Shown piece by piece: positions 1 through 51,950 of a stretch of 52,615 nt of DNA. The notes under the pieces were generated by a model, which saw only the letters and a list, made by a program, of their open reading frames with translations, was not told where the DNA came from and searched no databases. Within the stretch, counting starts at the first letter, position 1, and each line of letters begins with the position of its first letter. A program made the position numbers and the translations under genes. Origin of the DNA: Escherichia phage vB_EcoP_Bp7; the sequence record NC_079181.1. One strand, given 5' to 3'.

Positions 1-1941
1 ATGACTACTATCACCACTCAAACTATCAAATCCGTTGTTCCTGCTATCACTGCTCTGGTATATCGTGCCAAAGAGAAACAGAACTATATGCAGCCTCAGA
101 CTTGTGCTATTGCTGCCTTAGCCATCTTCAAGATGATGACGTCTTTCACTCGTGATGACGTTGTTCCTGCCATCGCGATGGTTGAGCTGGCTTCTGCTTC
201 TATTGCTGATGCCAACCGTTATAACAACGATTTGAAAGCAATGCACTATGTTGACCCAGCTATCAACCTGATTGGTTTGGCTAAGCACTTTGGCTTCATC
301 ACCATGAACGAAGACAAGTCATTCCAACAAACTGATACATGGGTTGAACTGGTTACAACCAAAGACACAGCAGTGCCATTCACTGAGCGTGTTACATCTG
401 AATCTCGTCGCAAGCCTTTCGTTAAAGGTGGCAAAGTTAAGCCATCCAAAACTCTGAAAGCTGCAATCGAATTCCTGCAAGATACTGAGTACCATGTGGA
501 GACTGAGATGGTTCGCATCATCCAGTCCATGCTTGAACAACGTACCTACGGTGGTTTGCAGATGCCAGAAGCAATCCAGACTGAACTCCATGTTTGGAAC
601 AATGCTGTAGCAATGATGAATCAGGACACACTGTATTCTGATTACTTTGCTGATAACCGTGGTCGTCTGTATCACGTAGCATGTGCTGGTCCTAACCCAC
701 AATCATCTGACTTTGCTCGTTGCTTGTATTCTCACAATGTTGAGAACATCGTTAAGAAGTTTAACGAAGATGGTTCTACTACCATTGCATACAACATGTT
801 CATGGCAGAGCTGGAAGATATTTCTGGTGGTGAATGGTGCAGTGCTAAGCGTTTAACTTATGTTGCTCAGAATCCAGCTGGTTCACTTGCTCGCATGATG
901 AACATGCCTAAAGCTGAACGTCCTTCTAAGCCATTCACTTATGTTCGTCTGGCTCTGGATTGGTTCAAGTTTGAGACTACAGGTGAGTGCGATTCTCGTG
1001 TAGGCTTTGGCTTAGATGCTAAATGTTCTGGTACTCAATATCTGGCATTCATTGCTGGTAACATGGAAATGGCTCGTGCAACAGGTCTGGTTGATTCTGA
1101 GACTAAAGCATCTGACCCATACCAGTTGAGTCTTCGTGAACTGTTGAAGCTGCTGGACAAGTCTTCAATGAAGCCATCTCCTGAAATCATGGATGAATTC
1201 TTGAATCCGAAAGCTGGTCGTAAGTTTATCAAAACTCCGTACATGGCTATCCAATACGGTGGTGGTAAAGCTGCACTAACTGGTTCATCTGACTTCATCA
1301 GCTACATGACAGAAGCACTCCAGATTCCTATGGAGAAAGCAGAAGCATTTGCTGAACTGTGTGTGGAAGCAATCCATAACGCATTGGGTGCTAAGATTAA
1401 CATGTTCATTGAGAAAGCTGCTGAAGCTGCATACAACCGTTGTGTTGAACTTGGTAAAGAGTACATCACATATCGTCACACTGATGGTCAGGTTGTAATG
1501 AAGCCTTGCTTCCCATCTCGTGAAATCTGTGAGGCATTCAGCATTCGTGTTGATAGTCAAACTCGTGTTATCTTTGGTCAGATTCAGGAGAATAAGCCTT
1601 GGACCATTCGTGAATCCAATCCAACTAAAGAAGAATTCAAGCGTACTTTCGTTGTTAACTACATTCAGGGCATTGATGCACTTGTTGCTCGTACTGTTGC
1701 AGTTAAAGCTAAAGAAGCTGGTCTTCGTGGCTTCACTTCAATCCATGATTGTTTCCGTTGCTGTTTGGCAGACGCTCCACGTATGATGGAAGTTATTCGT
1801 GCAGCATATGTTGAAATCTTCGTAACCAACAATCAGTTCGAGAATCTGTCTAAGCAACTCGGTGGCATTCAGATGTATCATGAGAACATCGTAACTGAAG
1901 AGCTTCTGATGAGCGAACACGCTTACTACTTCTGTCAATAA
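1..1941 (+). CDS. T7-like single-subunit DNA-dependent RNA polymerase, compact (646 aa)
   Basis: Palm motifs in translation: motif A GFGLDAKCSGTQYLAF, motif B RKFIKTPYMAIQYGGGK, motif C SIHDCF. ATG at base 1; a GGAG lies 8 nt upstream across the window junction (52604-52607) if the sequence is circularly contiguous. Confidence 0.9.
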   Translation: MTTITTQTIKSVVPAITALVYRAKEKQNYMQPQTCAIAALAIFKMMTSFTRDDVVPAIAMVELASASIADANRYNNDLKAMHYVDPAINLIGLAKHFGFITMNEDKSFQQTDTWVELVTTKDTAVPFTERVTSESRRKPFVKGGKVKPSKTLKAAIEFLQDTEYHVETEMVRIIQSMLEQRTYGGLQMPEAIQTELHVWNNAVAMMNQDTLYSDYFADNRGRLYHVACAGPNPQSSDFARCLYSHNVENIVKKFNEDGSTTIAYNMFMAELEDISGGEWCSAKRLTYVAQNPAGSLARMMNMPKAERPSKPFTYVRLALDWFKFETTGECDSRVGFGLDAKCSGTQYLAFIAGNMEMARATGLVDSETKASDPYQLSLRELLKLLDKSSMKPSPEIMDEFLNPKAGRKFIKTPYMAIQYGGGKAALTGSSDFISYMTEALQIPMEKAEAFAELCVEAIHNALGAKINMFIEKAAEAAYNRCVELGKEYITYRHTDGQVVMKPCFPSREICEAFSIRVDSQTRVIFGQIQENKPWTIRESNPTKEEFKRTFVVNYIQGIDALVARTVAVKAKEAGLRGFTSIHDCFRCCLADAPRMMEVIRAAYVEIFVTNNQFENLSKQLGGIQMYHENIVTEELLMSEHAYYFCQ

Positions 1942-8057: not shown

Positions 8058-8987
8058 GTGCAGCAATGCGTGAGGAATATCATGGACAATAAGGTTATCG
8101 AAATACCTGCCAACTTGGTTAAAACTGGCGACATTGTATTTCATGATGGTAGAGGGTATCCGATTGTACACATCAACAGACTTAGTGGTGTAGTTCAGCT
8201 ACAATACTCTGGCGGATTCTTTAACTTTGAGTTGGGCCGTATAGTCAGAGTATTGGAAAAACGTCCCACTACAGAATCTTTTACAAAGCCTACCACAACC
8301 CGTGCAGTATTGGCGCATGAAGTACGACCTGGAAACATTTTATCTTACGGAATCAGATTCTTTGAGATAAAGGAAGTTAAAGACCTTGGAGAAATACCTG
8401 AAAATGTGGTTCGATTAACCCATGTAACAGGATACTTTGACTTTTCACCCAACCGCATAGTCCACATTGTTAATACGCCACCAGCACAGGAAACTCCTAC
8501 GGTGAAGTTCGATACTCAAATAAAGCCAGTGTTCCTTCCATATGAGGAAGCGGTGAAACCATTCTCAGATGAAGAGGATGTTCTTGGAAAAGATTTGGAA
8601 GTTGGTGATATTATTTGGGTCAATAATACTTGGGCCACTATAACAAATATGTATAAACATCCAAATTCACCATTTAATAAAGTGAATGTGGACTATGATG
8701 GCGTTAAAGGTTTACAAGTGCGCCTCACATTAACTGGAACATTTTCAAGAAAGGTAAGGGCAGTTATGGAAACATTATATATTCAAAATGCAATCGAAGC
8801 ACAACGTATTCTTCTGCAAAAGCTCGAGCAAATGCTGGAATTAGCGCAGCTCCTACCAACAAAAGATGGCAAGATTGCAATCAGCAACTGCAACATTCGC
8901 GTGGACAAGGCATCAATCACTAAAGCCGCACGCGATGAAATGAAAGTTGCTGCAAGCAAATCCGCAGAACTTATCAAGAAGCTGTAA
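8058..8987 (+). CDS. hypothetical protein with three internal repeats and a C-terminal coiled coil (309 aa)
   Basis: Repeated modules around TGDIVFHDGRGYPIV / PGNILSYGIRFF / VGDIIWVNNTW; alternative ATG at 8082. Confidence 0.55.
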   Translation: MQQCVRNIMDNKVIEIPANLVKTGDIVFHDGRGYPIVHINRLSGVVQLQYSGGFFNFELGRIVRVLEKRPTTESFTKPTTTRAVLAHEVRPGNILSYGIRFFEIKEVKDLGEIPENVVRLTHVTGYFDFSPNRIVHIVNTPPAQETPTVKFDTQIKPVFLPYEEAVKPFSDEEDVLGKDLEVGDIIWVNNTWATITNMYKHPNSPFNKVNVDYDGVKGLQVRLTLTGTFSRKVRAVMETLYIQNAIEAQRILLQKLEQMLELAQLLPTKDGKIAISNCNIRVDKASITKAARDEMKVAASKSAELIKKL

Positions 8988-10281: not shown

Positions 10282-10572
10282 ATGGAGCATCCGATGAATT
10301 ACGAAGATATTCCAAGAGAGTTGAATGCACTAGAGTCAAGAACCATCCGTGCAGAGAATATTCTCCACCAGCACCTATCAATTAACGTGGGTGATGAAAA
10401 GAAGATGCAGTACACTATGGAACTTGACGATGTAGTCTACACTGTCAGTTACAACGAGAAGGCTGCTATCCTCAGTGCACTTATCAAAGGTGGGAATGAG
10501 CGAATCAATCAACTTAAGATTCTGGACAAAGAATTGAGAGGTACTTGGGAGAAACTAAATGCAAAACGATAA
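10282..10572 (+). CDS. hypothetical protein (96 aa)
   Basis: ORF from the track. Confidence 0.5.
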   Translation: MEHPMNYEDIPRELNALESRTIRAENILHQHLSINVGDEKKMQYTMELDDVVYTVSYNEKAAILSALIKGGNERINQLKILDKELRGTWEKLNAKR

Positions 10573-11107
10573 CATTACTCAAGCAGTAGAACAACTTAAG
10601 TCCTGGCGTAGAGATGAAACCTTATTGGTTCGTTTCTACACAGGCGAAACTAATTCTGAATTTGTAGATGCGTGGATTGATGGCCTGTCTTGGCGTCACT
10701 ATGATTTCGACATGCGGGAGTATTTGCATGAAGAATATGGCATTGAATATCCAGAAACCGGTACATACGACGTAATTGAATCAAATGAAGAGGATGTTAC
10801 CGAAGTTTGCTTTGCCAATGGCCTATTCAGTATTCGTAAATATGATAAGTTCAATGAGCTGCTTGTTGACACCGATTTGGATGTAATTCTTGCAGCATTC
10901 CGCAGCGGTGAGATTGATATTTTCACTGTGGATGATTTGAACGATATGTTCATCACACGTTGCGACTCAATTACAGAGTATTTGAAGCAAAGTGAGGCAC
11001 TGGATATTCCAGACCGCCTTGCACCATATATTGATTGGGATGCAATCACCAGAGATTATGGAAGTGACTACATTTTCTCTGAGGGAATACTGTTCTTAAA
11101 TGCGTGA
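10559..11107 (+). CDS. highly acidic protein (182 aa)
   Basis: Very D/E-rich throughout (e.g. EEDVTEV, DTDLDV, DIFTVDDLNDMF). Confidence 0.55.
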   Translation: MQNDNITQAVEQLKSWRRDETLLVRFYTGETNSEFVDAWIDGLSWRHYDFDMREYLHEEYGIEYPETGTYDVIESNEEDVTEVCFANGLFSIRKYDKFNELLVDTDLDVILAAFRSGEIDIFTVDDLNDMFITRCDSITEYLKQSEALDIPDRLAPYIDWDAITRDYGSDYIFSEGILFLNA

Positions 11108-12525: not shown

Positions 12526-12812
12526 ACTTACAGGACAAATCTAAAGAAGAGTTGATTGAGATTATCCAGAAAGAGCACGAACTCGCTGGCATCACAATTA
12601 ACTTTGAACTCCAGGCAATGCAAGCTGTTGCTTTGGGGCACGGTCTGATGGCTACACTCATTCATGCCAAGAATGTGTTAGGCGTTGACAACGAAAAATA
12701 CCAAATTCTGGAGAAAGCTGCGCAAGAGCGGATTTCGCAGTGCTTGGTGACATTAGTTGATTTGGGAATCGACGCAGAAACTGCGAACAAACGTATCCTA
12801 CAAGGCCACTAA
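12486..12812 (+). CDS. hypothetical protein (start uncertain)
   Basis: ORF from the track; overlaps the upstream gene, so the true start may be internal. Confidence 0.4.
   Translation: MDNKPTDLRSSILNLQDKSKEELIEIIQKEHELAGITINFELQAMQAVALGHGLMATLIHAKNVLGVDNEKYQILEKAAQERISQCLVTLVDLGIDAETANKRILQGH
12750..12768 (+). promoter_or_regulatory. phage promoter-like motif P9 (acattagttgatttgggaa)
   Basis: Conserved motif inside the 3' end of the preceding ORF, upstream of the 12814 gene. Confidence 0.45.
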
Positions 12813-12813
12813 A

Positions 12814-13488
12814 ATGTCTTATCATGATGATGACAAAGAGATTGCACTATCAACGTGTAAGCAATGGCTCAATGATAATGATGCCGTCTATCTTGCCAAG
12901 GAAGATGTTATCATTATGTGGGTCCATTTTAATCCAGAATCGAAGCGCGGTGAGTGGCAACGCTACAAGATGAAAGAGGCTTGTCGCATAATTAAAGCCA
13001 CACGCGCTGGCTTCTCTGCTATGAAGTATATTAAGCCAGAGATGCTTATGCTTGCTGCACAGGAAGAAGAACGTGCGTATAAGCAAGCTGTTAAATCTCG
13101 TTCAACTGTTCCTCCAGAGTTCTTTAATTTGGAGCGCGCTGGACACTTCAACAATTTAGAAATGTTGACACTGTGCCTGTTGCAAGAATTAGTTGGAAGA
13201 GGACAAAACATTGAAGCTGTTTGTCTTGGAGAACTCATGAAAGAGTTGTTCTCGGCAAAGGGCTTTGCTGTGCCAAACCGAACTTTACGCTGGAAATTGT
13301 TGCGAGCAGTCGCGCAAGAAGCTGGTGTAGTTGTTCGTGACAGAACAAACCGACTCACTGTAACTGGAGTTGGGCGTTTTGTAGCAATCCAGATTGAGGG
13401 TTATGACGAATCAATCATCACTGAACTCACTGTCGCTGAGACAAAGGATTTAGTAAATAAAACACTAGAACGATTCAATAGATATTGA
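12814..13488 (+). CDS. hypothetical protein (224 aa)
   Basis: ATG at 12814 in frame with the 12757 track ORF, directly after the upstream stop. Confidence 0.55.
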   Translation: MSYHDDDKEIALSTCKQWLNDNDAVYLAKEDVIIMWVHFNPESKRGEWQRYKMKEACRIIKATRAGFSAMKYIKPEMLMLAAQEEERAYKQAVKSRSTVPPEFFNLERAGHFNNLEMLTLCLLQELVGRGQNIEAVCLGELMKELFSAKGFAVPNRTLRWKLLRAVAQEAGVVVRDRTNRLTVTGVGRFVAIQIEGYDESIITELTVAETKDLVNKTLERFNRY

Positions 13489-15479: not shown

Positions 15480-15612
15480 TTATTGCTTAATTGCACAACC
15501 AATCTATTTGGATGTTGCAGAAGTGAAAATACTATCACGCGAAACCAAAACACAGATTTTAGTCCACAATGAAACGTGGGCACAAAAGTGTTCGAAACTT
15601 ACCCGACAGTGA
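15403..15612 (+). CDS. o-spanin-like lipoprotein (69 aa), overlapping the previous gene in another frame
   Basis: Lipoprotein signal MFRKKCLAVLIAMSIVSC with lipobox IVSC; overlapped two-frame layout as in Rz/Rz1 pairs. Confidence 0.45.
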   Translation: MFRKKCLAVLIAMSIVSCSQSGFVSDYCLIAQPIYLDVAEVKILSRETKTQILVHNETWAQKCSKLTRQ

Positions 15613-16555
15613 GTGAACAAGACGGACGTCTATAACTTCCCACATGGCCTAGCTAGTTGGTGGTGTAAAAGACTGACCAAGGTGACGACAGCCAAAGTCG
15701 AGGGAGTGCGCGACTTTAAATAACGAGACTCTAGCAACTTGTTGCGATGATGGTGTAAGCCCATGCGTTTGGAAGCAGGACTCCAACTCAAACAAACCTG
15801 CAAGTTGCTCTGGGCATAACAATTAAAATTGCTGCCTCGCATTGAACGCGAGAAAGTTCAGGTAGTCACTTCCTAGAACAGTGGCCGGGAACACACCTAG
15901 ACAAAAGTGCTTGAGAACGTTAGCTCTGTCTTGCCAGCATTAATGGCACGTTGGCCGCGTAAAGGCCACAGCGTCTGACCAACGTATCGGTCGCCAAATT
16001 CAATGGATTCGTAGAGTTAATTAAACCTGCACGATGGGATGGGGATGTAGCATCCGAGGCCGACTGTGTAATTGTGAACTTCGCGTTCACCGAATCCGCC
16101 AAATCCATGGGCTAGTGCAAATGTCAGTCACTAGAAGATGTGTTGCAAAACGTCTTCCATGATGTGCAAAGTGTCAGTCACGTGCCCGCCACTTTACCTC
16201 CAACAGTTATGCCTCTGTTCAAAAGGCTCAAGAGAGCGTCTGGCATACCGTAGCGATACGGCTTAGTTGCGCTGATTGTGTTGTGCAGAAAGAAAGTTCA
16301 GGCTTTCGTTTGGGTTACTCCTCATCCCGAAGTTAGCTGGATTCAAAATCCAGACTATGTTCCTATACACATGAAATATGCAAGTCGAGGGTTCTTAATG
16401 TTCAAACATGATGCGAGCATTAAGCGGGTTTATACTTTTCCCCGATGGTCCCCATAAACAAGGCTGATTCACTTGGGCGGTTCGAATCAAATTTAATAAG
16501 TGTTTTGTAACAGTTCACGTCAGGACACTTACTTAAATTTTAACTGGAGAGAAAC

Positions 16556-16786
16556 ATGAAAACTGCTGAAATTGCCGAAGAGATTTATAAGGCCGTAATA
16601 GCCAACCAAATTACCAGTGAAGTCCTGCACATGGATATTGAAGAAGTTCGCAATGCCTTTGGTGGTTTTGCAATCTTGTCAATTGAAGCTGCGGAAGCAC
16701 TAACAAGCACGTACAATCAACGCGAATATGAAAAGCGTTCTGTACTAAATGCGTCGATGAAAGAAATTCAGGCGTCATTAAAATAA
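16556..16786 (+). CDS. hypothetical protein (76 aa)
   Basis: ORF with GGAGAG upstream. Confidence 0.5.
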   Translation: MKTAEIAEEIYKAVIANQITSEVLHMDIEEVRNAFGGFAILSIEAAEALTSTYNQREYEKRSVLNASMKEIQASLK

Positions 16787-16842
16787 TACCATTATCATGG
16801 TGCGGAGCTAATTAATCTCCCACCATATGAACCGGAGAGCAA

Positions 16843-17493
16843 ATGATTACTGCAACACTCGTTGACCACATGGGCAGCGACCTTACAACTGTTAATGCTG
16901 CACGAGTTTCCTATGGTGCAGAGTCGCATGAAATGTCCTTACGTGACGAGAAGCTGATTGAGTTTCTTGCAAAGCATAAGCACATTACGCCGTTTCGCCA
17001 CGCACAGGTAACATTGCGTTGTAAAGCTCCAATCTTCATTGCACGTCAGCTTGGCAAACATCAAACTGGCTTTAGTTGGAATGAAGTTAGCCGTCGTTAC
17101 AAAGATGGTGAAGCAATCTCGATTGAATGTTTTGTACCAGGTGTAGTATTCGGTCGTCCTGAAAAGTTGATGACTCAGACTGCACAACCGTTGCCACAAG
17201 ATTTTGCTGACGATATTCATTATCGCATGGAAAGCCATAACAAGGCTTGCATCGCAGAGTATGAAACGTTAATTGGTTTGGGGATTGCCCCAGAGCAAGC
17301 TCGCATGGTTCTTCCACAATCCATGATGACTGAATGGATTTGGACTGGCTCACTTTATGGCTGGGCATCTATGTATAATCAACGTTCCTCCGAACATGCG
17401 CAATATGAAGTTCGCTTGTTTGCGGAAGAAGTGAATAAAATCATGTCAGAACTGTTCCCAATTTGTTGGAAGGCTCTGACCAACCAGGAATAA
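16843..17493 (+). CDS. thyX: ThyX-like (flavin-dependent thymidylate synthase family) protein, divergent
   Basis: Matches remembered ThyX sequence (VNAARVSYG, KAPIFIARQ, SRRY), but the canonical RHR motif reads KHQ here. Confidence 0.7.
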   Translation: MITATLVDHMGSDLTTVNAARVSYGAESHEMSLRDEKLIEFLAKHKHITPFRHAQVTLRCKAPIFIARQLGKHQTGFSWNEVSRRYKDGEAISIECFVPGVVFGRPEKLMTQTAQPLPQDFADDIHYRMESHNKACIAEYETLIGLGIAPEQARMVLPQSMMTEWIWTGSLYGWASMYNQRSSEHAQYEVRLFAEEVNKIMSELFPICWKALTNQE

Positions 17494-21563: not shown

Positions 21564-22430
21564 ATGGCATTTGCTGCTCCTACACTGGCCTCGAACAAGA
21601 CTCCTTCTGCTGCACCATTACTGGAAGCGGGTGGTTATCCTGCTCGTGTTTGCCGTATTATCGACCTGGGCTTACAGCCTGGTTCTGCTAAATATCCTAC
21701 TCCGTCCCTGAAACTTCTGGTGACTTTCGAACTGCTCGACGAGTACATGAAAGAAGTTGACAGCGAAGGTAAAATGGTCATGGTCCAAGACCCAGACGAA
21801 GATGACGGCATCATGATGGCGAAGAATCTTGAAGACAAGCCGCGTTGGTTTGACTTTGAGTTTACCTATAATGCTGACGGCTTCATGGGTGAGAACTCCC
21901 ACATCTACAAATTCGCTAAAGCGATTGATGCACTGGAAGTTAAACCTAATCTGGAACAAGGCATTCAGGGCCATCCTGCCAAGAACCTGCCGGATTGGTT
22001 GGGCGAACCTCTGATTGTTGGCATTGTTCAGTATACCAAGCAGTCAGGTAAGAATGCTGGCCAGGTTGCAAACAAAGTTGCTACCTTCTCTCCGATGAAA
22101 TCTAAGGAGAAGAAAGAAGCTAAAGCTCTGGTTAACCCGACTGTCTTCTTTGACATGTCCGAGCCGGACTTAGAAGTATTCAACAAACTGCCAGGTGGCG
22201 AATCTCCGTATGCAATCAAGAACCGTATTACTTCCGGTGTTGATTTCTACAAGACTAAGCTGTCTGCAATGTTAGGCGGTAAACCTGCCGATGAAGGCGC
22301 TGTACCGAATCAGGCTTCTGATGAAGAAGTTGATGCAGCTATGAAAGCTGAACTGGAAGCACAGGCTGCTGCAAAAGCACAGCGTGAAGCGGAAGGTGGT
22401 GCTGCTGGCGGTACGGGTATGCCGTTCTAA
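21564..22430 (+). CDS. abundant hypothetical protein in the replication module (288 aa); ssDNA-binding role speculative
   Basis: E. coli-like high-expression codons; acidic and Ala-rich C-terminal region ending GMPF; followed by a strong terminator. Confidence 0.55.
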   Translation: MAFAAPTLASNKTPSAAPLLEAGGYPARVCRIIDLGLQPGSAKYPTPSLKLLVTFELLDEYMKEVDSEGKMVMVQDPDEDDGIMMAKNLEDKPRWFDFEFTYNADGFMGENSHIYKFAKAIDALEVKPNLEQGIQGHPAKNLPDWLGEPLIVGIVQYTKQSGKNAGQVANKVATFSPMKSKEKKEAKALVNPTVFFDMSEPDLEVFNKLPGGESPYAIKNRITSGVDFYKTKLSAMLGGKPADEGAVPNQASDEEVDAAMKAELEAQAAAKAQREAEGGAAGGTGMPF

Positions 22431-24037: not shown

Positions 24038-24782
24038 GCTCCTCGCTGATGGTACAAGATATACAAAGGCTCACGCACATGACTGGGAAGACCCAAACTG
24101 TCTTATTCGTGGTCGATGCGAATTGTACATCAAAATTGACGGCATACGAGCGATTCGTAATGCTTCTGGTGAGGTATGGAGCCGCAACTCTAAACCTCTC
24201 CCTCACTGCGACCATCTCAAATTTAAAGATGCAGAAATCTTTCGCGGTTCCTGGAACGAGACTTCATCTATCCTTGGGCGTATCGACCCTCCGACCATAC
24301 CGTTATCGCAAGAAAACGTTTATGAGTTGAGTGATGGTGCTGTTGACCCACGCCTGTACATCGGCTGGTGCAAGGACCCAAGCAATGAAAACCTTAAGGC
24401 ATTGATGGATAAATATCTGGCGCTTGGTCATGAAGGTATCATTGTCCGCGATGCAAAAGGTAAATGGTGGAAGATTGTACCATATAAATATGCCGATGTG
24501 AAGATTACTGGTATGAAAGAAGGTACTGGTGCTCTTAAAGGTATGTGCGGTTCTATCTCCTCGAACTACGGCAGTGCCGGTTCAATGGTGAAAGATTGTC
24601 TGGCAGACCACGGTGTTCCAGAATCTAACACATTGATTCGTAAGTGGTTGTGGGAACATCGCCACGAGCTAGTTGGTTCGATTATGCAAGTTCGGTATCG
24701 TGAGAAGACAGAAGCTGGTAAGTTCCGGTTCCCGTCACTCGTTCGTTTACGTGCAGACAAAAGTGAGGAAAGTTTTGATTAA
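24027..24782 (+). CDS. ATP-dependent ligase-like nucleotidyltransferase (251 aa)
   Basis: Motif I KIDGIR, motif IV-like EGIIVRD, motif V-like KWWKIV; overlaps the HNH gene end by 11 nt. Confidence 0.65.
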   Translation: MSIKLLADGTRYTKAHAHDWEDPNCLIRGRCELYIKIDGIRAIRNASGEVWSRNSKPLPHCDHLKFKDAEIFRGSWNETSSILGRIDPPTIPLSQENVYELSDGAVDPRLYIGWCKDPSNENLKALMDKYLALGHEGIIVRDAKGKWWKIVPYKYADVKITGMKEGTGALKGMCGSISSNYGSAGSMVKDCLADHGVPESNTLIRKWLWEHRHELVGSIMQVRYREKTEAGKFRFPSLVRLRADKSEESFD

Positions 24783-25401
24783 GCGATTAGCTGTTATTCT
24801 CAATGGACCTCCTGGCTGCGGCAAAGACACCATTGCAAATAAGATTGTTGCTGCTGAGGAACCTTACTTCCTCGGCAGACGCAAATTCATTAAACACCAG
24901 TTTAAGGATGCACTGTATGAGCATACTGCCAAACACTTTCAAGTTGATGTGGACAAGTTTATTCACTACGCTTCGGACCGTGACCTCAAAGACTCTATCT
25001 CCCTTGCAGGTCTTGGTGGCAGAACACCTCGTCAGGCTCTTATTCACGTTAGCGAAGATGTGTATAAGCCTCGCCACGGACAAGACTACTTCGGTAAGGT
25101 TGAAGCTGCTCGTGTTAAAGAACTCGCGGGGCGTATGGGTGGCATTATTAATGTCATTTATCCCGATGGCGGTTTTGGTGATGAAGTCGTTGCCATTGAG
25201 TCTGCTTATGATTTTGTCCTCGTTGTGCGTTTGCATCGTGATGGTTTTGATTTCACGGGCGATTCTCGCAGATACATCAACCTCCCAGACACACCTACCC
25301 GCGTAACAGTGGACGAACATTTAGTTGATGGTAAAGTGGGTGATTCTGTATTCAAAGTGTTCAACTGGATTGAACGCGTAACCTATAAAGTAGAGAAATA
25401 A
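24775..25401 (+). CDS. P-loop nucleotide/polynucleotide kinase-like protein
   Basis: Walker A ILNGPPGCGKDT; probable TTG start at 24775 (GAGG 6 nt upstream) or GTG at 24763. Confidence 0.6.
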   Translation: MIKRLAVILNGPPGCGKDTIANKIVAAEEPYFLGRRKFIKHQFKDALYEHTAKHFQVDVDKFIHYASDRDLKDSISLAGLGGRTPRQALIHVSEDVYKPRHGQDYFGKVEAARVKELAGRMGGIINVIYPDGGFGDEVVAIESAYDFVLVVRLHRDGFDFTGDSRRYINLPDTPTRVTVDEHLVDGKVGDSVFKVFNWIERVTYKVEK

Positions 25402-25403
25402 TC

Positions 25404-25925
25404 ATGTCTTGTATGACTCAAGTTGTTGCTGTAAAGCGAGTGCATCCTAATGCGAAATTACCTGTGTACGCTACTGCTGGCGCTGCTGCTGCTGACGTTT
25501 GCACTATCTCCGATAGCACTGTTGTTATCAATCCCGGCTGCTCTGCTGTTTTCGATACTGGCCTCCAATTCGAGATTCCAGTTGGATACGAACTCAAAGT
25601 ACATAGCCGTTCTGGTCACGGCTTTAAGTCTGGTATTCGCCTGGCAAACTGTACAGGAATTCTGGACTCCGATTATCGTGGTAATCTTATGGTTAAGTTG
25701 CACAACGACTCGGACACAGCCTTTGTGGTTCAACCAGGTGAACGTATTTGTCAGGTGCAAGTTAGTAAAGCTACTCAACACCATTTCGTTGAAGTTGACC
25801 GCTTGAATGCAACTGGTCGTGGTGAAGGTGGCTTTGGCTCAACTGGTCGTGTGGAACTTGGTCAGCATGAAAGACCACATATTCCAGAAGGCTTGACAGT
25901 CCACAATCACAGCATTGCCAAGTAA
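25404..25925 (+). CDS. dut: dUTP diphosphatase (dUTPase)
   Basis: All five trimeric dUTPase motifs: ATAGAAAADV, SRSGHG, GILDSDYRGN, GERICQ, RGEGGFGSTGR. Confidence 0.85.
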   Translation: MSCMTQVVAVKRVHPNAKLPVYATAGAAAADVCTISDSTVVINPGCSAVFDTGLQFEIPVGYELKVHSRSGHGFKSGIRLANCTGILDSDYRGNLMVKLHNDSDTAFVVQPGERICQVQVSKATQHHFVEVDRLNATGRGEGGFGSTGRVELGQHERPHIPEGLTVHNHSIAK

Positions 25926-50295: not shown

Positions 50296-50850
50296 ATGCT
50301 ATCATTCAAAGTCCTTGCAGTTCTGGCAGCTTTAGTTCACATCAACGCCCCAGCTTCGGTTGGGGCAGTGAATTCTGCTATTACAGATTTTGCAAGTCAT
50401 TCCTATTTAAATGGAAGTCTGAAACTATCTTCTTCACAACGCAAAGAGCTAGAATGCTATACTAAAGTTATTTGGTATGAAGCTCGCGGAGAAGACAAAC
50501 ATGGAAAGATTCTGGTAGCTAATGTCGTCCGTAATAGAACCAAGTTCGGGAAGCCATTCGCTAACACCGTTTGTGATGTTGTCTATCAACGCAATCAATT
50601 TGCATGGACACGAGAAGCAAAGAAGAAGAATGCTCAATGGAAGCATGTAGCAAAGATTAATTATGCCACGGAACAACAACAAGTTCTGGACACCATTAAT
50701 GTTGCAATCTCTTTTGTATTATTTAATCAACCCTCTGTCACCAAAGCAACCCACTTTTGTACAGCATCGGAGAAGTGCAACTTCAAGAATGTCAAAGGTT
50801 TGGGACGTTACGGTGGCCACAAATTCTATGAGTATCTAGGAAATCTGTAA
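50296..50850 (+). CDS. endolysin, SleB-like cell wall hydrolase with N-terminal signal/SAR-like segment
   Basis: Hydrolase_2/SleB signature [22 protein letters not shown] ... VVYQRNQF; N-terminal hydrophobic [19 protein letters not shown]. Confidence 0.7.
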
Positions 50851-51950
50851 TGGCTTACACTACCTTTTCACAAACCAAGAATAACCAACTACTAGAGCCA
50901 ATGTTCTTTGGTCAGAACGTTAACGTTGCTCGATATGACCAACAGAAGTATAGCATCTTCGAGAAGTTAATCGAAAAGCAGTTATCTTTCTTTTGGCGAC
51001 CTGAAGAGGTTGATGTTAGTCAAGACCGAATTGACTATGCTGGTCTTCCTGAATGCGAGAAGCACATCTTCACCAGCAATTTACGATACCAAATCCTGCT
51101 TGATTCCATTCAGGGACGTGGACCAACCACAGTTTTGCTACCAATTGTGAGCATTCCTGAGCTGGAAACCTGGATTGAAACTTGGTCATTCTCAGAGACA
51201 ATTCACTCCCGTTCTTACACGCATATTATTCGTAATATTGTCACAGACCCAAGTGTAATTTTCGACGAAATTGTGGAGAATGAGCACATTAAAATGCGTG
51301 CAATTGGCATCTCCCAATATTATGACGAGCTTCAACATCTAACTTCCATGTGGCATCTGCATGAAGATGAAGTAGACCTTCGTGAGCTTAAGAAGAAGCT
51401 GTATTTATGCCTCATGTCCATTAATGCACTAGAAGCAATCCGCTTTTATGTCAGTTTTGCTTGCTCATTTGCCTTCGCTGAACGCAAGTTGATGGAAGGG
51501 AATGCCAAGATTATTCGCTTAATTGCTCGTGATGAAGCACTCCATTTGACCGGAACTCAACACATGCTGAACCTTCTTGCAAGCGGTGTTGATGACCCAG
51601 AAATGGCAGAAATTGCTAAAGAATGCCGTCAAGAATGCCAACTAATGTTCGAAAATGTAGCCCAACAAGAGAAAGATTGGGCTGATTATTTGTTCAAAGA
51701 TGGCTCAATGATTGGCCTAAACAAGCAAATTCTGTGCGGATATGTGGAATATATCACGAATATTCGTATGCAAGCAGTTGGATTAGATGCTCCATTCAAA
51801 GGTGCTACTAACCCGATTCCTTGGATTAACGCATGGCTGAATTCGGATGCTGTACAGGTTGCTCCACAAGAAACGGAAATTAGTTCGTACCTTGTCGGGC
51901 AGATTGATTCCGAAGTGGACACCAATGCTCTGGGCGGATTTGAGCTGTAA
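50850..51950 (+). CDS. nrdB: class Ia ribonucleotide reductase beta subunit, host-like
   Basis: Near-identical over most of its length to remembered E. coli NrdB ([11 protein letters not shown]..., [40 protein letters not shown]-terminal [14 protein letters not shown]). Confidence 0.92.

Follow-up and report, generated by a model that had tools for sequence, protein, structure and literature searches.

What becomes of a ThyX enzyme when the tripeptide by which its family is recognized has been replaced? ThyX is a homotetramer in which each flavin-containing active site is formed by three subunits, and the RHRX7S signature of the family was reportedly set out by Myllykallio in 2002, with an extended motif from Ulmer in 2008. 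The question is raised by a gene of Escherichia phage vB_EcoP_Bp7 (NC_079181.1), whose 52,615 nucleotides, the whole stretch of DNA analyzed here, are called the window below. The original prediction described the gene product as a ThyX-like protein with the catalytic RHR motif replaced by KHQ and took this to suggest altered substrate recognition, possibly a different nucleotide substrate or modification chemistry. RHR, known as the "ThyX motif," is said to be strictly conserved, and a survey of the whole family once used it to decide which proteins to include. Does its replacement mark a new activity, a dying gene, or another way of building the same enzyme?

A full-length ThyX in a phage replication module

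The thyX gene lies at 16843..17493 on the + strand, an open reading frame that runs from ATG to TAA and encodes 216 amino acids plus the stop. Its location and the segments VNAARVSYG and KAPIFIARQ are exactly as first noted, and the translation also includes LGKHQTGFSWNEVSRRY. A Shine-Dalgarno-like GGAGAG (16834..16839, +), read from the sequence, ends 3 nt ahead of the ATG, and its GGAG core (16834-16837) ends 5 nt before it; the ST32 paper gives the same CGGAGAGcaaATG for the thyX ortholog. Downstream, the primase/helicase starts 4 nt after the thyX stop.

That the protein is a ThyX homolog is borne out by profiles, PDB matches, and fold. Pfam Thy1 (PF02511) matches it end to end (E 5.4e-43; 147.4 bits against a cut-off of 24.8), with residues 5-206 of the query on positions 1-190 of the 191 in the profile, and is the only Pfam match of the protein. 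The NCBIfam thyX equivalog TIGR02170 scores 132.5 bits, above its cutoff of 87.9, and the phrog_85 thymidylate synthase profile matches at E 5.6e-72. The PDB sequences of Thermotoga maritima and Thermus thermophilus ThyX match the query at E ~1e-28 with HMMER. An AF2 monomer model (mean pLDDT, 92.5; pTM, 0.87) retrieves only T. maritima ThyX among its top 50 PDB matches in Foldseek, at a TM score of ~0.8 (0.81). By profile, fold, and catalytic residues, the query is a full-length member of the ThyX homologous family. A ThyA-type phage pyrimidine hydroxymethylase or methylase was considered and rejected, Thy1 being the sole Pfam match and the fold search giving ThyX alone.

The window belongs to a phiEcoM-GJ1/ST32/flopper-like coliphage (Chaseviridae, Carltongylesvirus) and is 93-97% identical to many isolates over the replication module. 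All of these related isolates annotate the gene as a thymidylate synthase, without experimental basis, and GenBank already has the gene, correctly named. The descriptions of ST32 and flopper merely list thyX among the replication genes and contain nothing on DNA modification. Other genes of nucleotide metabolism are encoded at a distance. A dUTPase gene (minimum open reading frame 25404..25925, +; Pfam dUTPase E 1.2e-22), whose ST32 ortholog is annotated as dUTPase, is functionally linked to thyX via the supply of dUMP, though not adjacent to it. At the genome end, a gene for an RNR small subunit (50850-51950, +; Pfam Ribonuc_red_sm E 2.3e-48) looks like an orphan NrdB-like gene, with no partner of large-subunit size evident in the open reading frame list of the window or in the ST32 annotation.

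Does the phage carry anything that might modify its bases? No recognizable base-modification gene was found among the open reading frames of the window that were tested against Pfam. Five early or replication-module frames of 182-309 amino acids, all on the + strand (21564-22430, 24673-25401, 8058-8987, 12757-13488, and 10559-11107), went unmatched in Pfam at E<=0.001. The ST32 ortholog of the last of these is annotated "anti-restriction protein."

A few further features of the genome deserve mention. About 0.9 kb upstream of thyX (~15612-16556) is without a long open reading frame on either strand, and the equivalent ST32 stretch (16414-17404) is also unannotated; searches of it for Rfam families (E<=0.1) and tRNAs came back empty, and promoter- or terminator-like sites are no commoner in it than in shuffled sequences. 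Positions 1-1941 (+) hold a T7-like single-subunit RNA polymerase gene, going by the ST32 annotation, in a genome of myovirus type. ARAGORN found no tRNA over the whole window; flopper, a relative, was reported with one. HNH endonuclease genes are inserted in the thyX-primase-polymerase region of some close relatives (phiEcoM-GJ1, SA91KD, and DE15) and are absent from the window, and the module is therefore read as a hotspot of homing-endonuclease gain and loss.

The KHQ motif and the branch of ThyX that carries it

Where exactly does KHQ fall? In the HMMER pairwise comparison with T. maritima and T. thermophilus ThyX, the query reads 'ARQLGKHQTGFSWNEVSRRY' opposite 'ARQWFRHRIA-SYNELSGRY'. Two independent MAFFT alignments concur, placing K72, H73, and Q74 (codons AAA CAT CAA, 17056..17064, +) on R78, H79, and R80 of the T. 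maritima enzyme (Tm), whose numbering is used below for positions in the family. A search through the whole query protein found no RHR tripeptide at any position. The replacement of RHR by KHQ, first noted by eye, therefore holds in proper alignments and does not reflect a conserved RHR at a shifted position. The spacer from the motif to the serine is one residue longer in the query, KHQ-X8-S (KHQTGFSWNEVS) as against RHR-X7-S. With two substitutions, one of them conservative, and this longer spacer, the query departs from the RHRX7S signature, and it is filed in the ThyX homologous family rather than as a canonical RHR-type ThyX.

Elsewhere, Tm H53, Q75, E86, S88, R90, Y91, R147, R174, and H178 are all kept, as query H47, Q69, E81, S83, R85, Y86, R154, R181, and H185, and the flavin-lining H53, H79, R174, and T55 equivalent are conserved. 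The single further change in the loop is from Tm G89 to R84, which turns SGRY into SRRY (S83-R84-R85-Y86, codons 17089..17100, +, opposite Tm S88-G89-R90-Y91); R84 is the arginine gained by the subclass described below. The query is also changed at Tm E58 (to R) and R165 (to Y). Because loss of the third arginine co-occurs with gain of an arginine at position 89, the count of positive charges in the loop is preserved, with R, R, and G in the canonical enzyme and K, Q, and R in the query.

Is KHQ, then, a local oddity? Judged from sequence comparisons, it is the prevailing state in a large ThyX clade borne mostly by phages. No named family corresponds to this subclass, which is defined here by a residue other than Arg at Tm 80 together with Arg at Tm 89, within a phage-dominated clade. 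The query, with Q74 and R84, belongs to it and groups with phiEco32 and ~135 representatives in an NJ tree. Among the 121 sequences formed by the query and its 120 nearest database proteins (66-98% identity), K72, H73, R84, and R85 never vary and 119 sequences have Q74, with a mean per-site identity of only 77%; H47, Q69, E81, S83, Y86, R154, and R181 of the query are likewise invariant.

Farther out, the 150 best-matching representatives of clusters at 50% identity (drawn from 1.8 billion proteins), which are 40-60% identical to the query and as a set skewed toward its relatives, carry KHQ in 74 cases, KHK in 21, KHT in 11, and RHR in only 3, as read from MAFFT columns; position 89 is R in 137 of them. 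A minority of class members have M, L, F, or G there, e.g., Aeromonas PhAER-4 (SMRY), and their existence indicates that R89 is not strictly required in the class. When 185,579 species genomes were searched by pattern, 57 loci of the subclass type came up; 56 of them are readable, all with SRRY and none with Arg at position 80. As for named sequences, the nine canonical ones, a small set (T. maritima, T. thermophilus, Thermus G20c, Rhodobacter RcMaeve, Gordonia Hydrus, Mycobacterium CharlieB, Sulfitobacter CB2047-B, Synechococcus S-B68, and Salmonella S5), combine RHR with G, A, or Q at position 89, while the ten class members lack R80 and nine of the ten have R89. Members of the R89 clade include phiEco32 (KHQ); roseophage SIO1, N4-like Vibrio and Acinetobacter phages, and Rheinheimera Barba phages (all KHK); and Bacillus Taylor and Streptomyces Jollison (KYV/KYA).

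In the NJ tree, built after removal of the four motif columns, every non-RHR sequence falls in one group, with the lone sequence combining RHR and R89 (P0190) at its edge. This suggests that R89 may have been gained first and R80 may then have become dispensable, an order that is tentative, given a tree without support values in which just nine sequences are canonical. When the nine canonical sequences are compared with 136 clade members, the positions that discriminate between the classes are Tm E58, R78, R80, R143, and R165, along with a small number of hydrophobic sites, and position 89 also separates the classes in direct comparisons. From these positions, the remodeling appears to be concentrated in the phosphate/FAD-pyrophosphate shell, with the residues of base recognition and catalysis untouched.

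Several metagenomic ThyX proteins of the subclass contain an intein-like insertion (C...HNH-type endonuclease...HN|S) right after KHQxGF. The carriers are P0121 (480 amino acids), P0251 (581 amino acids), and probably P0195, P0200, and P0201 (526-601 amino acids); the ten representatives that were looked up, intein-bearing ones included, are metagenomic proteins. Inteins are usually located in functionally critical sites. Under the heading of "distinctive ThyX motifs," Liu and Yang reportedly described a Trichodesmium thyX intein in 2004, which may be related to the insertions in this subclass.

Could the gene be a decayed or nonenzymatic relic, kept as a pseudo-enzyme or for a structural or regulatory role? 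The suspicion is natural for a protein that departs from the signature motif used as an inclusion filter in earlier surveys, and whose host, E. coli, already has its own ThyA. Yet the reading frame is intact and has a good ribosome-binding site, all catalytic residues are kept, and the motif residues K72 and H73 do not vary among the 121 relatives. The same states recur across the clade down to ~40% identity, and in some homologs the inteins sit exactly in the motif loop, as is typical of functionally critical sites. We find a relic barely credible, and decay into a pseudogene was rejected on the conservation seen across the 121 relatives.

Roles of the changed residues

What do the altered positions do in ThyX enzymes of known structure? 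According to a review of the Mycobacterium tuberculosis and Helicobacter pylori structures, RHR forms hydrogen bonds with FAD at its AMP phosphate, FMN phosphate, and ribityl and, through the first Arg, also touches the isoalloxazine and dUMP, and Arg165 of H. pylori (Hp; Arg190 of M. tuberculosis, Mtb) is another FAD-phosphate ligand. Basta et al. report that Tm R78, R80, S88, and R90 form hydrogen bonds with dUMP, R78 and R80 being conserved dUMP ligands, and that in PBCV-1 ThyX the pocket for the dUMP phosphate can be filled by the side chain of Gln-89. In the published ThyX mechanism, S88, R90, Y91, and R174 are tied to dUMP activation and methylene transfer. Strictly, then, RHR is not the "catalytic" motif that the original prediction called it; the literature makes it a motif that binds dUMP and the phosphates and ribityl of FAD. 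No published assay of any member of the K-H-x/SRRY subclass was found in the searchable literature, nor was anything relevant found on phage ThyX biochemistry, Chaseviridae DNA modification, or RHR variants.

The explanation that we favor, and consider likely, is that the gene encodes a functional flavin-dependent synthase that converts dUMP to dTMP with a rebuilt phosphate/FAD-pyrophosphate shell. Every residue needed by the published ThyX mechanism is present in the query. Under this scheme, dUMP would be supplied by the phage dUTPase plus host pathways, and the flavin of the tetrameric enzyme would be reduced by NAD(P)H. The methylene of CH2-H4folate would be taken onto flavin N5 and then passed to C5 of dUMP, which R85 and R181 (Tm R90 and R174) would activate with the assistance of S83 and Y86. 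K72, a conservative replacement of the first Arg, would keep its contact, next to the retained H73. In the clade, the third Arg is lost and its position free to vary (Q, K, T, or V), and further canonical residues of the FAD shell, Tm R165 and E58, are lost as well; R84 of the catalytic loop would fill the role of the third Arg at least partly. The enzyme would act in infection, co-expressed with the replication module, whose primase/helicase gene follows so closely. Two parts of this proposal carry different weight. We infer the identity of the reaction, dTMP synthesis, with good confidence. That R84 takes over, at least in part, the phosphate-binding role of the lost arginine is an evenly poised proposition, suggested by the co-variation and by the entry of PBCV-1 Gln-89 into the dUMP phosphate pocket.

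Might the KHQ variant instead handle another nucleotide (dCMP, UMP, or a di- or triphosphate) or perform another chemistry (e.g., hydroxymethylation), and so put a modified base into the phage DNA? R80, a reported dUMP ligand, is gone, and since R78 and R80 are textbook ligands of dUMP, its loss could in principle alter nucleotide handling. ThyX homologs with another substrate exist, an example being PDB 4p5a, which we take to be the UMP methylase PolB, and accessory modification enzymes are possible among the several replication-module frames that lack Pfam annotation. Yet the changed residues bind phosphates and not the base or the 2' position; R90, R174, S88, Y91, Q75, and E86, which contact or activate uracil, are all unchanged; and R84 keeps the positive charge count of the loop. 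The query is also nearer to bona fide ThyX (~103 bits) than to 4p5a (70 bits), scores on which membership among the PolB-type UMP C5-methylases (4P5A) was rejected. The phage has a dUTPase, a maker of dUMP, and the class serves in a chromosomal thyX-dcd operon of Babeliales/TM6 (described below). It also spans many routinely sequenced phages (phiEco32, SIO1, and N4-like vibriophages), in which, to our knowledge, thymine replacement has never been reported.

With the changes falling on phosphate and FAD-pyrophosphate ligands and the uracil-activating residues kept, the different nucleotide substrate or modification chemistry originally proposed finds no support, and we regard it as improbable. 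The broader phrase "altered substrate recognition" survives narrowly, in that the phosphate/FAD-phosphate pocket appears to be built differently, and fails in the sense of a changed substrate or chemistry. Likewise improbable is that the whole clade has shifted in function toward another nucleotide or C5 product, providing a ThyX-based route to noncanonical pyrimidines in Chaseviridae, Kuravirus, and other phages; we know of no ThyX-derived DNA modification pathway. New chemistry is unlikely because KHQ marks a large ThyX subfamily with an arginine gained elsewhere in the active-site loop.

A subtler alternative keeps the reaction and alters the handling of the cofactor, e.g., with FAD bound more weakly or exchangeably, a cofactor of FMN type, or another preferred reductant. 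R84 would then serve the flavin phosphate and not the dUMP phosphate, which refines the favored explanation rather than replacing it. In its favor, R80, R165, and E58, canonical ligands of the FAD-ADP/pyrophosphate, are lost, the discriminating positions are E58, R78, R80, R143, R165, and 89, and the review mentioned above puts RHR together with Hp Arg165/Mtb Arg190 on FAD, at the AMP phosphate, the FMN phosphate, and the ribityl. Against it, the flavin-lining H53, H79, R174, and T55 equivalent are retained. Moreover, Tm R165 is only presumably the counterpart of Hp R165, an equivalence taken from the numbering, and Tm E58 is a presumed FAD ligand. We consider altered cofactor handling possible but rather doubtful; a change that mainly affects how FAD is held is nonetheless as compatible with the data as compensation by R84.

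What would a dTMP synthase with a rebuilt shell mean more broadly? To phage biologists the gene would be an unremarkable part of a replication module that supplies dTMP; its use is for ThyX enzymology and motif-based annotation. The searchable literature seems to have no account of a whole, large, mostly viral ThyX branch with a relocated arginine, the third arginine of RHR being absent and a new one fixed beside the catalytic serine. Liu and Yang, writing on "distinctive ThyX motifs" in 2004, may have touched on this relocation. If relocation is confirmed, the minimal ThyX signature would become H...S-x-R-Y plus R147 and R174, motif-based surveys would be seen to under-count viral ThyX, and the branch would serve as a natural experiment in holding the phosphate of dUMP and the pyrophosphate of FAD.

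Comparison with known ThyX enzymes

How does the query compare with the ThyX proteins already known? Canonical ThyX (T. maritima TM0449, PDB 1O26/1KQ4; T. thermophilus, 6J61) is ~35% identical to it (E 1e-28; TM score, 0.81) and shares H53, Q75, H79, E86, S88, R90, Y91, R147, and R174. The query differs in R78 to K, R80 to Q, G89 to R, E58 to R, and R165 to Y and in a loop that is longer by one residue on the way to S88. PBCV-1 A674R (PDB 2CFA/4FZB) is viral like the query, and the side chain of its residue 89 (Gln-89) enters the dUMP phosphate pocket, but it has the canonical RHR and is far more distant in sequence (E 9e-9).

Closer at hand are two phage enzymes of the same subclass. The ThyX of phiEco32 (Kuravirus) reads ARQLGKHQVGFSWNEMSRRY and is 54% identical to the query, and that of roseophage SIO1, with KHK...SRRY, is 48% identical and has K at position 80, where the query has Q. 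We know of no biochemical characterization of either. Because phiEco32, SIO1, and the query phage belong to different phage families, their shared subclass points to horizontal spread of thyX among phages.

The same signature extends to a cellular lineage. Chromosomal thyX genes of Babeliales/TM6 (Dependentiae) read R/K-H-T/V/S...SRRY and are ~39-43% identical to the query; unlike the query, they are cellular, lie in a thyX-dcd operon beside housekeeping genes, and encode a longer N terminus and mostly R at position 78. In TM6 bacterium L033 (124-kb contig), an RHT...SRRY thyX has rplS (L19) and a class II aaRS on one side and, overlapping it, a dCTP deaminase gene on the other. Four divergent loci of Babeliales/TM6 type share the thyX-dcd pair, with Dcd proteins 71-78% identical and KHV as the motif in one of the four, and another Babeliales thyX locus has cellular envelope genes on its flanks. 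The stop and start codons of the pair overlap in L033 (2890-4265) and also in L028, L032, and L036. A conserved operon with a dUMP-feeding enzyme in a cellular lineage is what one would expect of a housekeeping dTMP synthase. Apart from the Babeliales/TM6 thyX, the K/R-H-x + SRRY class is dominated by phages, a hint that thyX has been exchanged between viruses and cells in this intracellular lineage.
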